A stretch of DNA of 64,000 nt, taken from an uncultured Anaerolineaceae bacterium (GTDB lineage Bacteria > Chloroflexota > Anaerolineae > Anaerolineales > Villigracilaceae). The notes under the pieces were generated by a model. The model saw nothing but the letters and a program-made list of their open reading frames with translations, was not told where the DNA came from and did not search any database. Where the stretch lies: contig CAZSVR010000012.1 of the NCBI GenBank assembly GCA_964610295.1, forward strand, positions 4,246-68,245, written 5' to 3'. A program made the translations under genes and the position numbers. This document shows positions 394 through 3,931 of the stretch, piece after piece (the stretch's first letter is position 1; the number at the start of each line of letters is the position of its first letter).

Positions 394-414
394 TATACTG
401 ATAAAAACAGTATA
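394..414. promoter_or_regulatory. Operator-like palindrome TATACTG-N7-CAGTATA upstream of the original hutH start
   Basis: Perfect 7-bp inverted repeat in the divergent intergenic region; cognate regulator unknown. Confidence 0.3.
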
Positions 415-470
415 GCACTTTCCATTATTAACGGGATTACAATACCCCCATTCTTTTTAAGGAGAACCCT

Positions 471-542
471 ATGCGTATGAGCCTCGACGGTTCGTCTCTT
501 ACGACACAGACTTCCGAAGTCTGGCAGACTTCGGAAGTCTAG
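471..542 (+). pseudogene. hutH: Orphaned 5' stump of hutH (MRMSLDGSSLT) running into a REP (TQTSEVWQTSEV*)
   Basis: SD AAGGAG at 459-464; 471-503 matches hutH 1239-1271 at 28/33 nt. Confidence 0.75.
508..540. repeat. REP doublet AGACTTCCGAAGTCT-ggc-AGACTTCGGAAGTCT (left flank of RAYT)
   Basis: Perfect 15-bp inverted repeat with 3-nt loop; twin at 1194-1226. Confidence 0.9.
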
Positions 543-554
543 AGAGGTGACACC

Positions 555-1238
555 ATGCCACGGAGATTAACTCCCTTTGCGCCCGATATGTATTACCACT
601 TTTATAATCGTGGTAACAACCGCCAGGCGGTTTTCTTCGAGTCCGATAATTATCTGTATTTCTTGAAAGGGATTGAGAAATACCTGACCTCCACTATGAA
701 TATTATTGCCTATTGTTTAATGCCGACCCATTATCATCTTTTGGTGAGGGTTAAACCCCAGACTTCTGAAGCGCCAAAGAACGGCGAAACTTCGAAAGTC
801 TCGTTGCAAGTCTCTCGTGCCATGCAAAAATTCCTGATTTCCTACACCAAAGCCATCAACAAGCGATTTCAGCGCGTTGGTTCGTTGTTTCAGGGACAAT
901 TCCAAGCCAAGCCTATTCAGAACTACCCTCATTTGCTCAACTTATGTGTCTATATTCATGCCAATCCCGTGAAAGATGGACTGGTCACTACACCCGAAGA
1001 TTGGATATACTCGAACTATCTCGAATGGCTGGGTCAACGTGACGGCACGCTGGTTGACCGCGAATTTATTCAAGAAAATTTTGGTTCACCATCGGAGTAT
1101 CAGACATTTGTAATGGATTATGTCAAGACGCGTTATTTGCCCGAAGATGTGAGAAAATATTTGCAATCATTGGAAGATTTAATCTTATCCCCCAGACTTC
1201 CGAAGTCTCTGAGACTTCGGAAGTCTATAGGAGTCTAA
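555..1238 (+). mobile_element. REP-associated tyrosine transposase (RAYT/TnpA-REP, Y1 HUH family)
   Basis: YHFYNRGNNRQ, AYCLMPTHYHLL (HUH), GSLFQGQF, YIHANPV...PEDWIYSNY motifs; REP doublets on both sides. Confidence 0.92.
1194..1226. repeat. REP doublet AGACTTCCGAAGTCT-ctg-AGACTTCGGAAGTCT (right flank, overlaps RAYT 3' end)
   Basis: Same arms as 508-540; read as RLPKSLRLRKS in the RAYT tail. Confidence 0.9.
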
Positions 1239-2762
1239 ATGCCCATCAGCCTCGACGGTTCGTCCCTTTCGATTGAAAAACTTGTTGCGATTGCGCGCGG
1301 TAATGAAAGAGTGGAATTAGTCCCTGCCGCGCTGGGACGCATCAAGATCTGCCGCGCCATGCTGGAGGAGAAACTTGCCAATAAAGAGATCATGTATGGC
1401 ACGAACACGGGTATCGGTGAATTCTCTGAGAAGATTTTGAACGATGATCAGGTAAAGGAATTCCAGAGATATCTGATCTACAACCACGCGGCGGGGATCG
1501 GCGACTCCGCGCCGATCGAGCACGTGCGCGCGGCACTGGCAGGGCGCATCAACGTCCATGCGCACGGGAATTCGGGTTGCAGACCCGAGATCACTTTAAC
1601 ACTGGTGGAGATGCTCAACAAAGGCGTCACGCCAGTTGTTTGCCAGAAGGGGTCAGTCGGCGCGAGCGGTGACCTTGCGCCGATGGCACAAGCCGCGTTG
1701 CTCCTTATGGGTGAAGGCGAGGCTTTCTATAAAGGTGAGCAGTTATCAGGTGCGGAAGCGATGCGGCGGGCAGGCATCGAAATCCCCGGCTTGCAGGCGC
1801 GTGACGGCCTGGCCGCGATCAATGGATCAAATCTATTAACTGGAATGTCCGCGTTGCACATTTATGATATGGAAAGATTCTTGAAACAAGCAGAGATCGC
1901 GGCGGCGATGTCGATTGAAGCATTGCTTGGCAACCTGAAACCATACAACACCAAGATACATGAATTACGCGGCTTTCATGGCGCGATCACCTCTGCAAAA
2001 AATATTATGAAAGTGGTTGAAGGCTCTGATCTAACAACCGGCAAGATGAAAACAAAAGTGCAGGATGCGTATTCGATGCGATCCACACCCCAGGTGATCG
2101 GGGCGGCGCGTGACGCTTTGGCCTACGCGCGTTCACAGGTTGAAATTGAATTGAACGGCGTGGGGGATAATCCGATCTTCGTGCCTGAGTTGAAGTTGAC
2201 TTTGACCGGCGCAAATTTTCAAGGCACGCCGGTTTCCCTGCCGATGGATATGGCCGGCATCGCCATCACGATGGTCTCTGTTTTATCAGAACGCAGACTC
2301 AACCGTCTGACCAACCCCGCTCTTTCCCAGGGACTGCCTGATTTCCTTGCCCATGAACCGGGTTTCTACTCTGGATTAATGCTCAGCCAATACACGGCCG
2401 ATCATTTGATCGTGGAACAAAGGATTTTATCCGCGCCTGCGAGCATACAATCCATCCCGGCCGCAGCCGATCAGGAGGATTTTGTTTCCATGGGTATGAA
2501 TACCGCTTTGAAGAATGGACAGATTTTAGATAATGCCTATGGCGTTTTGGGAATTGAATTCATGGCCGCCGCGCAGGCATTGGACTTCCGCGAGTTCACA
2601 CCCGGCAAGGGGACGAACAAGGCACGTGAAGTGATCCGTAAATATGTGAAGCACCTTGAAGTTGACCGCCCGTTGTATCCCGACCACAACGCAATGAAGG
2701 CACTGGTGAAATCGGGTGAGATATTGAAGGAAGTGGAGAAGACAGTAGGGTTGCTCGGCTGA
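1239..2762 (+). CDS. hutH: Histidine ammonia-lyase (aromatic amino acid lyase family)
   Basis: MIO-forming GSVGASGDLAP, YGTNTGIG, QDAYSMRSTPQV, QEDFVSMG. Confidence 0.88.
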   Translation: MPISLDGSSLSIEKLVAIARGNERVELVPAALGRIKICRAMLEEKLANKEIMYGTNTGIGEFSEKILNDDQVKEFQRYLIYNHAAGIGDSAPIEHVRAALAGRINVHAHGNSGCRPEITLTLVEMLNKGVTPVVCQKGSVGASGDLAPMAQAALLLMGEGEAFYKGEQLSGAEAMRRAGIEIPGLQARDGLAAINGSNLLTGMSALHIYDMERFLKQAEIAAAMSIEALLGNLKPYNTKIHELRGFHGAITSAKNIMKVVEGSDLTTGKMKTKVQDAYSMRSTPQVIGAARDALAYARSQVEIELNGVGDNPIFVPELKLTLTGANFQGTPVSLPMDMAGIAITMVSVLSERRLNRLTNPALSQGLPDFLAHEPGFYSGLMLSQYTADHLIVEQRILSAPASIQSIPAAADQEDFVSMGMNTALKNGQILDNAYGVLGIEFMAAAQALDFREFTPGKGTNKAREVIRKYVKHLEVDRPLYPDHNAMKALVKSGEILKEVEKTVGLLG

Positions 2763-2819
2763 CCAAGGACTGAGGACCGAGGCTCAAATATATTGGTCCT
2801 CTGTCATTTGTCCTTCGTC
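2762..2819. repeat. Palindromic intergenic element (GACCAAGGAC...GTCCTTCGTC type)
   Basis: Imperfect inverted arms after the hutH stop. Confidence 0.45.
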
Positions 2820-2839
2820 TTTTACCCTACAGGTGAACC

Positions 2840-3931
2840 TTGAAAAAATTTCTTCTCTCTTCCCTTCGACGTTGCTCAGGGCAGGCTTTCCTTTTTCTTT
2901 TCGCTCTTTCGGCCTGTCTTCCCACAACGACCACGCCGATCATTCCTACTCATGCTCTGCCTACAGAGATTCCGATGACATCCACAACTCAACCTGAATC
3001 CACTCCACCTCTCGGTCGCGGCGTGAACATGGGCAACATGCTCGAAGCGCCGAACGAAGGCGAGTGGGGGCTGTATGTTGAAGAGGAATATTTTGACCGG
3101 ATCAAAGAGGCAGGCTTTGACTTTATCCGTTTGCCGGTTAATTGGAAGGCACATACCAAATATTTAGGACATGATGACGGAGATACTGCCTACTATATTG
3201 ATCCAACTCTCTTTGCTCGTGTCGACGAAGTGGTCAATTGGGCTTTGAAACGCAACCTCCCGATCATCATTGATTTTCATAATTATGAAGAACTTATGTC
3301 TGAACCGAATCTCAATCAATTTGTCTTTTTGTGGGAACAAATCGCCGAGCATTACAAAGATTACCCACCACAGGTTTTGTTTGAATTGCTCAACGAACCT
3401 CACGATCAATTGGATGCCGCATTGTGGAACATTTACGTTGTTGATGCATTGAAGGTGGTGCGCGAGACAAATCCCACACGCGATGTAATTATCGGCCCGG
3501 CAAATTGGAACGCCTACGATTAGGTTTCCACACTCAATATCCCTGATGATCCACATCTCATTGTGACGTTTCATTACTATCTGCCATTCGAGTTCACGCA
3601 TCAAGGCGCGGAGTGGATCGGAGATGAAAGCAACGCATGGCTTGGCACAACCTGGGATGGGACCGACGAACAAAAAGCCGAGATCACGCGCAACTTTGAT
3701 TCCATTGCGGAGTGGGCGAAGGGACATAACGTCCGCATATTACTTGGAGAGTTTGGCGCCTATTCAAAGGCAGACCCGAACTCCCGCGTCCGCTGGACAG
3801 ATTTCGTGGCGCGTGAAGCGGAGCGTCACAACTTTGCATGGGCTTATTGGGAGTTTGGATCGGGCTTTGGGGTGTACGATCCGTTTGCAAAAGGCTGGCG
3901 TGAAGAATTATTGAAGGCGTTGATCCCATAA
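2840..3931 (+). pseudogene. GH5 endoglucanase lipoprotein interrupted by one in-frame TAG at 3521-3523
   Basis: RGVNMGN, ELLNEP (acid/base), FHYYLPFEFTHQG, LGEFG (nucleophile); the two ORFs are in the same frame; lipobox LSAC. Confidence 0.85.

Follow-up and report, generated by a model that had tools for sequence, protein, structure and literature searches.

A transposase gene sits within the start of a host gene in DNA from an uncultured Anaerolineaceae bacterium (contig CAZSVR010000012.1 of assembly GCA_964610295.1), and the gene start that lies ahead of it appears to be kept as a short translated leader. The window, meaning the whole stretch of 64,000 nucleotides that was analyzed, carries a gene for a REP-associated tyrosine transposase (RAYT) between two doublets of repetitive extragenic palindromic (REP) sequence. 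This REP-RAYT-REP cassette lies inside the 5' end of a gene for a hutH-like ammonia-lyase, and the beginning of that gene is present on both sides of it: an upstream copy, here called the relic, and a downstream copy from which the lyase is read. We think it fairly likely that the arrangement is an old insertion-duplication and not a fresh transposition, that this genome inherited it or acquired it by recombination, that recombination has kept its copies homogenized, and that the relic is translated as a leader.

The features of the locus are collected in Table 1. Behind its Shine-Dalgarno (SD) sequence, the ATG at 471 opens a reading frame for MRMSLDGSSLTTQTSEVWQTSEV; the frame begins MRMSLDGSSLT, continues through the REP cores, which it translates as TQTSEVWQTSEV, and terminates at the TAG at 540-542. 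The cores, AGACTTCCGAAGTCT and AGACTTCGGAAGTCT, form an inverted pair at 508-522 and 526-540 and recur at 1194-1208 and 1212-1226, and the window holds five core matches where 0.08 would be expected by chance. The RAYT open reading frame (ORF), 227 codons long, begins 12 bases past the leader stop. The right REP doublet sits within the 3' end of this ORF, whose stop (TAA, 1236-1238) is followed at once by the ATG of hutH at 1239. The direct repeat, 471-503 against 1239-1271, is identical at 28 of 33 positions. A preliminary description of this DNA had reported both starts with their SD sequences, the REP doublets, the RAYT, and the repeat, with the cassette inside the 5' end of hutH and the 1239 copy as the working start, and all of this was borne out, position by position.

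The lyase itself has 507 amino acids and matches Pfam Lyase_aromatic (E=8e-162). It is called hutH-like because it passes the cutoff of the NCBIfam histidine ammonia-lyase subfamily NF006871 (537.9 bits against 524) and falls below that of the TIGR01225 hutH equivalog. Within the insert of ~770 nt, the only ORF with a family match is the Y1 transposase. A scan of the insert's ORFs and families found no tyrosine or serine site-specific recombinase (integrase) encoded between the repeats, in agreement with what had been said before.

How good is the case that the transposase is a RAYT? It matches Pfam Y1_Tnp at 38.3 bits (cutoff, 23) and NCBIfam REP_Tyr_transpos (NF047646) at 64.7 bits, short of the equivalog cutoff of 80, and it is therefore a divergent member of the family rather than one of the proteobacterial type. 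The HYH motif at residues 59-61 and the catalytic Tyr133 in YIHANPV are invariant in an alignment of 19 homologues. A profile of the family, searched against the PDB, has Escherichia coli TnpA_REP (4ER8) as its sole match (E=3e-4); the profile was required for this, as a single-sequence phmmer search of the PDB with the RAYT returned nothing. In the genome (163 contigs, 3.73 Mb, 52% GC), the REP family has 22 exact cores, or 25 clusters when up to 2 mismatches are allowed, of which ~13 are doublets, spread over more than 12 contigs. The RAYT is single copy (one tblastn match at 100% identity), with paralogues at 42% (C26), 34% (C7), and 28% (C8) identity, and those of C26 and C7 are accompanied by their own, separate REP families. 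With flanking REPs, a dispersed REP family, a single gene copy, and the HUH and tyrosine residues, the locus has the defining features of a REP-RAYT system.

Two details of the RAYT reading frame are worth describing. In all relatives, the RAYT stops at ...GAAGATTAA, ahead of the right REP. The window has one extra T at 1178-1180, so that the normal stop is lost and the frame reads on through the REP doublet, giving a 19-amino-acid C-terminal extension specific to this genome. The extra T may reflect a genuine mutation or an error in sequencing the homopolymer. That hutH begins directly after the RAYT stop, as was first noted, thus holds for the window but for none of its relatives. A degenerate REP doublet is also read in frame inside the RAYT, where orthologues read QTSEVFKTSEV and where a clade of gyrA-associated RAYTs (described below) has a perfect internal doublet. 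The C7 paralogue has a different REP of its own, aacctgacaggtct, at the same internal position, while the ffh-type paralogues have no internal REP.

How old is this arrangement? Two collections bear on the question: 80 hutH loci from species-representative genomes, and 80 loci from a RAYT-based scan of metagenome contigs. Among the species representatives, 79 of 80 have no RAYT beside hutH; the other, an NCBI metagenome-assembled genome (MAG), L016, has the window's layout, its REP-RAYT-REP unit being enclosed by a perfect direct repeat of 30 nt, CAGGAGATTTCCATGCCCATCACCCTCGAC. Among contigs from metagenomes or MAGs, ~35 independent ones have an orthologue of the window's RAYT (58-90% amino acid identity) directly upstream of hutH. 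A relic hutH start, trimmed to 25-37 nt, precedes the left REP at 15 loci or more (the window, L016, L081, L083, L084, L086, L090, L091, L093, L098, L100, L103, L108, L109, and L111). The presence of the layout in many Anaerolineales contradicts a recent event private to this genome.

The surroundings of the relic are those of the native gene. Many RAYT-free relatives have TACAAT, then ~27-35 nt, AGGAG, and one ATG, and the window's upstream copy at 471 sits in this same native promoter and SD context. The relics of other genomes lie in this context as well. In occupied loci that have no relic, the left REP comes directly after TACAAT at a variable distance, as fits deletions. The right junction is uniform in the occupied relatives: REP, a few bases, SD, and ATG. 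A tree of the RAYTs, rooted with a 44%-identical outgroup, places relic-bearing loci on the deepest branches as well as in the window's own subclade (the window, L083, L081, and L084). The relic-bearing form is read as ancestral and the relic-free forms as deletions, and the layout is probably ancestral for this RAYT clade. A GGAGTACAAT-like motif (434-443 in the window), ~30 nt upstream of the hutH start, is kept across many Anaerolineales and is a probable -10 element or regulator site. A consensus scan did not call the TACAAT box as a promoter because its -35 is weak.

The host gene tells a less orderly story. In a hutH tree built with the repeat columns left out, occupied and empty alleles are interleaved, with at least 7 changes of state, and the window groups with 8 empty alleles. 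RAYT and hutH distances are weakly correlated (rho 0.16, Mantel p 0.2), a result of little information, since the synonymous sites of hutH are close to saturation and L145, one of the loci compared, may be chimeric. The nearest hutH proteins, those of L161 and L162, are 93% identical in amino acids and come from empty loci, but are only 82.5% identical in nucleotides. Sliding-window identity along hutH, with relatives at ~75-89% per window, gave no mosaic signal and no donor-like 5' segment. As for L145, its gyrA and gyrA-type RAYT (58% identity) are joined to hutH (2501-3784) precisely at a REP doublet that L124 has in identical form, whereas a gyrA remnant occupies that place in the sister contigs L142, L144, and L146. 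Either REP-mediated recombination or a chimeric assembly produced the L145 contig.

Where did the second hutH start come from? The suggestion had been that it was supplied by a relative, and comparison of the two copies speaks against this. With repeat extents set by hand in 12 genomes, the differences between relic and working copy within genomes total 28, against a mean of 44.9 when pairings are permuted (0 of 20000 permutations as low, p<5e-5). In 7 of the 12 genomes, no other copy is as close to the relic as its own partner. The window relic differs from its partner at 5 positions and from the copies of any other genome at 7 or more. Both window copies have the rare Ser4 codon AGC, found elsewhere at only one locus, L089, and other lineage-specific codons are likewise common to both copies: ACC (Thr2) in L084, GCC (Ala2) in L111, and ACT/TCT in L098. 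With AGC shared and each copy the nearest match of the other, a distant relative is excluded as the source of the window's second start. The upstream relic (MRM...) has drifted from the family consensus MPIT..., and the downstream copy has not. Pooled over the 12 genomes, the copies differ by 15 synonymous and 13 non-synonymous changes, fewer of the latter than full neutrality would give (P=0.005). The likeness of the copies, together with the interleaving of occupied and empty alleles, fits gene conversion, or excision and re-integration via the repeat, plus allele exchange between lineages.

Why would a displaced gene start persist? The lengths of the relics offer a clue. From ATG to the first REP core they measure 37, 34, 31, 28, or 25 nt, always 1 mod 3, and the leader frame and its REP stop are therefore constant. 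A MAFFT alignment of the 15 relics has gaps of 3, 6, 9, and 12 nt only. The 9-nt and 12-nt gaps fall in different RAYT subclades, which implies at least 4-6 independent in-frame deletions; the probability that all would be in frame by chance is at most (1/3)^4, ~0.012. Translated in the leader frame, the REP gives (Q/E)TSEV..., with termination at a TAA or TAG made by the REP end or, in a REP-sequence variant, at a TAG made by the REP start. This stop falls 10-21 nt ahead of the RAYT ATG in most loci and 44-46 nt ahead in the variant group. In the sequences of the window and L016, ribosomes in either of the other two frames would run to or past the RAYT start. None of the 15 relics departs from GGAG and ATG, although adjacent bases vary. 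The relic thus appears to behave as a translated leader, as judged from these regularities of sequence. In the leader RNA, the left REP doublet folds as a hairpin of ~15 bp (z-score -3.3). A structured RNA or riboswitch leader was considered and rejected, as there is no Rfam match and the REP hairpin is the sole part that folds.

Duplicated gene ends beside RAYTs are not confined to hutH. One clade of RAYTs, nested in the hutH-associated ones at 57-63% identity, lies ~10 nt past the stop of gyrA (identified by Pfam DNA_topoisoIV and DNA_gyraseA_C). A second copy of the gyrA 3' end, 48 to ~245 nt long, directly follows the right REP in L127, L130-L132, L134, and L142-L146. In L127, all 5 differences between the two copies over 117 nt are synonymous (P=6e-4). 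Although their lysine-rich tails vary by indels, both copies stay in frame to end KKKK*. Within the genome of the window, the C26 paralogue (~400-1500, reverse strand), whose REPIN family is different from that of the window and longer, lies between the genuine 3' end of ffh and a 73-nt remnant copy of it, and this remnant keeps its frame and stop. These ffh copies have 14 differences, 10 synonymous and 4 non-synonymous, where the expected non-synonymous fraction is 0.82 (P=2e-5). A relative, L163, has a matching ffh bracket (2302-2372 and 3189-3259). The search of the genome for other RAYTs or REP pairs followed by duplicated gene starts that the preliminary description proposed thus had a divided outcome, with no second cassette carrying a gene start but with a duplicated gene end at C26. 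Only REPs, and no host-gene repeats, were found around the C7 and C8 paralogues and in L164-L166, and other ffh-type RAYT loci, beside acs or uvrD, have only REP flanks.

What do these copies of gene ends signify? Since the ffh and gyrA differences are mostly synonymous, with frame and stop kept, both copies evolved as working gene ends, and alleles of different lineages must therefore have met at these loci. The cassette could have brought them together on its arrival, or the working copy could have been replaced by another allele afterwards.

Taken together, a mechanism can be proposed for hutH. The hutH promoter would transcribe leader, RAYT, and hutH as a single RNA; no intrinsic terminator was found between RAYT and hutH. 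Ribosomes entering at the relic's ribosome binding site (RBS) would translate the short leader across the left REP hairpin, melting it, and by terminating at the REP-end stop would leave the RBS of the RAYT free; the second SD would serve the translation of hutH. In each lineage, the repeat copies would be kept alike by gene conversion or by excision and re-integration via the repeat, and the same repeats would permit clean loss of the cassette, yielding the RAYT-free alleles of relatives. As to the origin, DNA with a cassette and an adjoining gene terminus would have recombined with the resident hutH, with no transposition catalyzed by the RAYT, either by a Campbell-type route (a circle with cassette and gene terminus) or by homology-facilitated illegitimate recombination. 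This part is less certain, but the origin was probably homology-anchored recombination rather than transposition, the repeats of 73 to ~245 nt being too long for a transposase stagger. Of the interpretation first offered, the structure and the idea of recombination anchored in the host gene survive, the latter as the most plausible origin now that ffh and gyrA end copies beside related RAYTs prove to differ mostly synonymously; neither a recent import from a relative nor movement driven by the RAYT is supported.

Several points weigh against an old, homology-anchored insertion whose relic serves as a leader. On either side, the repeats run up to the REP boundaries, as a true insertion with target duplication would give, and the hutH counts of 15 and 13 are also compatible with duplication in situ, the relic drifting neutrally beside a constrained gene. 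The RAYT tree has little support at its deep nodes. The relic is absent in some relatives and is therefore dispensable. The nearest relative hutH is ~83% identical in nucleotides and the relatives include no near-isogenic occupied and empty pair, so that donor, recipient, and junction cannot be read directly. Finally, the operon and the leader function are deduced from the DNA sequence. The first two of these points belong to a rather unlikely alternative, in which the long target duplication was itself the product of one ancient insertion, by way of RAYT- or repair-dependent staggered breaks or gap filling, and was followed by vertical inheritance, erosion of the relic from the REP side, and occasional gene conversion, with no foreign DNA. 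Such an insertion would account for repeats that lie within a few nucleotides of the REP boundaries at hutH, gyrA, and ffh, for an inserted unit that looks exactly REP to REP, and for relics that shorten stepwise from the REP-proximal side. It has more trouble with repeats of 73 to at least 245 nt, which far exceed any known transposase stagger, and with ffh and gyrA remnants that keep frame, stop, and (in gyrA) the lysine-rich tail despite indels and diverge mostly synonymously, as working ends and not dead copies would. Y1 enzymes (IS200/IS605 type) are not known to make target duplications.

Could the RAYT itself have mobilized the cassette together with a captured host gene start, by one-ended or read-through excision, and inserted it into hutH with a relative's start? 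The REP hairpins that a Y1 enzyme needs are present, the catalytic residues are kept, and capture of adjacent sequence would explain a repeat that begins right beside the REP. Yet the RAYT is single copy and the genome has no second gene-start cassette, the layout is old and widely shared, the window's copies have the rare AGC in common and are each other's nearest match, and insertion at exactly the matching hutH codon would need chance. Nothing shows movement by the RAYT itself, and this proposal, one of two that the preliminary description had raised, is improbable. More improbable still is a chimeric assembly join at the REP repeats that faked the duplicated start. Doublets of 33 nt can mislead short-k assemblers, and L145, where a gyrA-type RAYT is joined to hutH at a shared REP doublet, may be such a case. 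The order relic, REP, RAYT, REP, hutH, however, recurs in more than 15 independent assemblies from different samples, including the NCBI MAG with the perfect 30-nt repeat, by which a chimera is effectively excluded. An origin by tandem duplication followed by REP x REP deletion was also rejected. It predicts a solo REP outside the relic, and none was seen upstream of the hutH relic or beyond the gyrA remnants of L127, L131, and L142; L134 has a single REP-like match downstream of its gyrA remnant.

Table 1. Features of the RAYT-bearing hutH locus in the window and paired gyrA 3' ends in related loci (SD, Shine-Dalgarno sequence; CDS, coding sequence)
Feature	Position	Strand	Remark
TACAAT, -10-like box of the native hutH promoter region	438-443	+	Found also in relatives
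Native SD AAGGAG of the relic hutH start	459-464	+	GGAG invariant, 15/15 relics
Relic hutH start, putative 23-codon leader ORF; first 33 nt are the upstream repeat copy	471-542	+
Left REP doublet, two inverted 15-nt cores with 3-nt spacer, ~15-bp hairpin	508-540	+	Fold z-score -3.3
RAYT (Y1 HUH)	555-1238	+	Pfam Y1_Tnp
Degenerate REP doublet within the RAYT CDS, just past the HUH motif	759-801	+	Resembles C30:41329-41371
T-run, one T more than in all relatives	1178-1180	+	GAT TAA to GAT TTA A
Right REP doublet	1194-1226	+	Core match
Second SD AGGAG, for the functional hutH start	1229-1233	+	SD and ATG after right REP in all occupied relatives
Intact HAL/PAL/TAL-family ammonia-lyase (hutH-like); first 33 nt are the downstream repeat copy	1239-2762	+	Lyase_aromatic
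gyrA 3' end copy pair	L127:354-595 and 1301-1515
gyrA 3' end copy pair	L131:2268-2323 and 3174-3229
gyrA 3' end copy pair	L142:2301-2347 and 3182-3229

Some observations on the surroundings can be added. A minus-strand ORF at 66-362 (98 amino acids) has a match to the HD_5 domain that covers no more than its final 45 positions, and probably represents a piece of a gene; on one side of this ORF lies hutH and on the other the neighbor that adjoins hutH in L161 and L162 (C12:3715-4060). The genome also encodes a 40% paralogue of the HAL-family protein on C123. Proteins 77-87% identical to the window's HAL-family protein occur in MAGs labeled Acidobacteriota, Pseudomonadota, Planctomycetota, Ignavibacteriota, Bacteroidota, and WOR-3 (the loci include L021, L025, L030, L035, L037, L039, L044, L051, and L053), an unusually high identity across phyla that points to horizontal transfer or mis-binning.

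What might these loci mean for RAYTs more generally? The biology of RAYTs has been largely inferred from Proteobacteria. What is new here is (i) a 5'-end bracket with a conserved leader ORF, evidence of concerted evolution, and synonymous-biased divergence of repeats, and (ii) the presence of three bracketed loci (hutH, gyrA, and ffh) in one order, two of them in one genome. The bracketed termini show signs of recurrent loss, of homogenization, and, for ffh and gyrA, of an allelic origin of the copies, and the findings point to recombination-based acquisition or exchange of RAYT loci. The conserved leader ORF would tie RAYT expression to the host promoter and RBS. A broader proposal, tentative and on balance doubtful, is that RAYT cassettes may spread and persist without an integrase by way of an adjacent conserved gene terminus (the 5' end of hutH, the 3' ends of gyrA and ffh), recombining with the resident gene, which is kept intact. 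The long repeats would later allow excision and re-entry, and the displaced hutH start would have been co-opted as a leader coupling the RAYT to the host promoter and RBS. The bracketing looks like a general, undescribed way in which "immobile" transposase genes settle beside host genes.

How does the locus compare with known systems? The closest are the REP/REPIN-RAYT systems, or REPtrons (E. coli TnpA_REP/YafM, PDB 4ER8, and Pseudomonas RAYTs), with which it shares a Y1 HUH gene flanked by inverted copies of its own palindromic repeats, one gene copy per repeat family, repeats dispersed as doublets genome-wide, and the same locus in many relatives (~35). Published RAYTs are single-copy, vertically inherited, and immobile genes that keep to the same extragenic space, without evidence that they transpose themselves (bioRxiv 10.1101/2021.07.10.451892; PMC5581495), and the RAYT literature describes group 4 RAYTs as common in Caldilineae. 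A term search of the RAYT literature examined found no mention of duplicated host-gene termini. Unlike REPtrons, the window's RAYT is nested in the 5' end of a gene with a duplicated start instead of in plain extragenic space, is probably co-transcribed with hutH, has a small REPIN population, scores under the NCBIfam equivalog cutoff, and has a REP doublet within its own coding sequence. It is also patchy on the host-gene tree, in contrast to the strictly vertical picture that has been published.

The remaining comparisons concern the bracket rather than the enzyme. IS200/IS605 elements likewise have a Y1 HUH transposase with subterminal hairpins, but they are multicopy, insert 3' of a short target, and are not known to produce a target duplication, whereas the RAYT here is single copy with long flanking repeats. 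Integrase-borne elements that supply a replacement gene end include SXT/R391 in the 5' end of prfC, e14 and phage 21 in the 3' end of icd, and tRNA-gene islands. As at hutH, the host gene stays intact through a second copy of its terminus, with the displaced remnant on the other side, and remnant and working copy can differ mainly synonymously (icd; here, ffh and gyrA). The RAYT insert differs in having no integrase or other recombinase apart from the RAYT, a repeat length that varies by lineage, and a single gene. Campbell-type single crossover and homology-facilitated illegitimate recombination occur in natural transformation, as in Acinetobacter and Streptococcus pneumoniae. They too leave direct repeats of a host segment, of arbitrary length and anchored on one side in a conserved gene, with copies that can be alleles of different lineages and with clean excision possible. 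They differ from the loci described here, for which no donor-recipient pair is identified, in being known as a laboratory or transformation outcome and not as a standing architecture of a transposase family.

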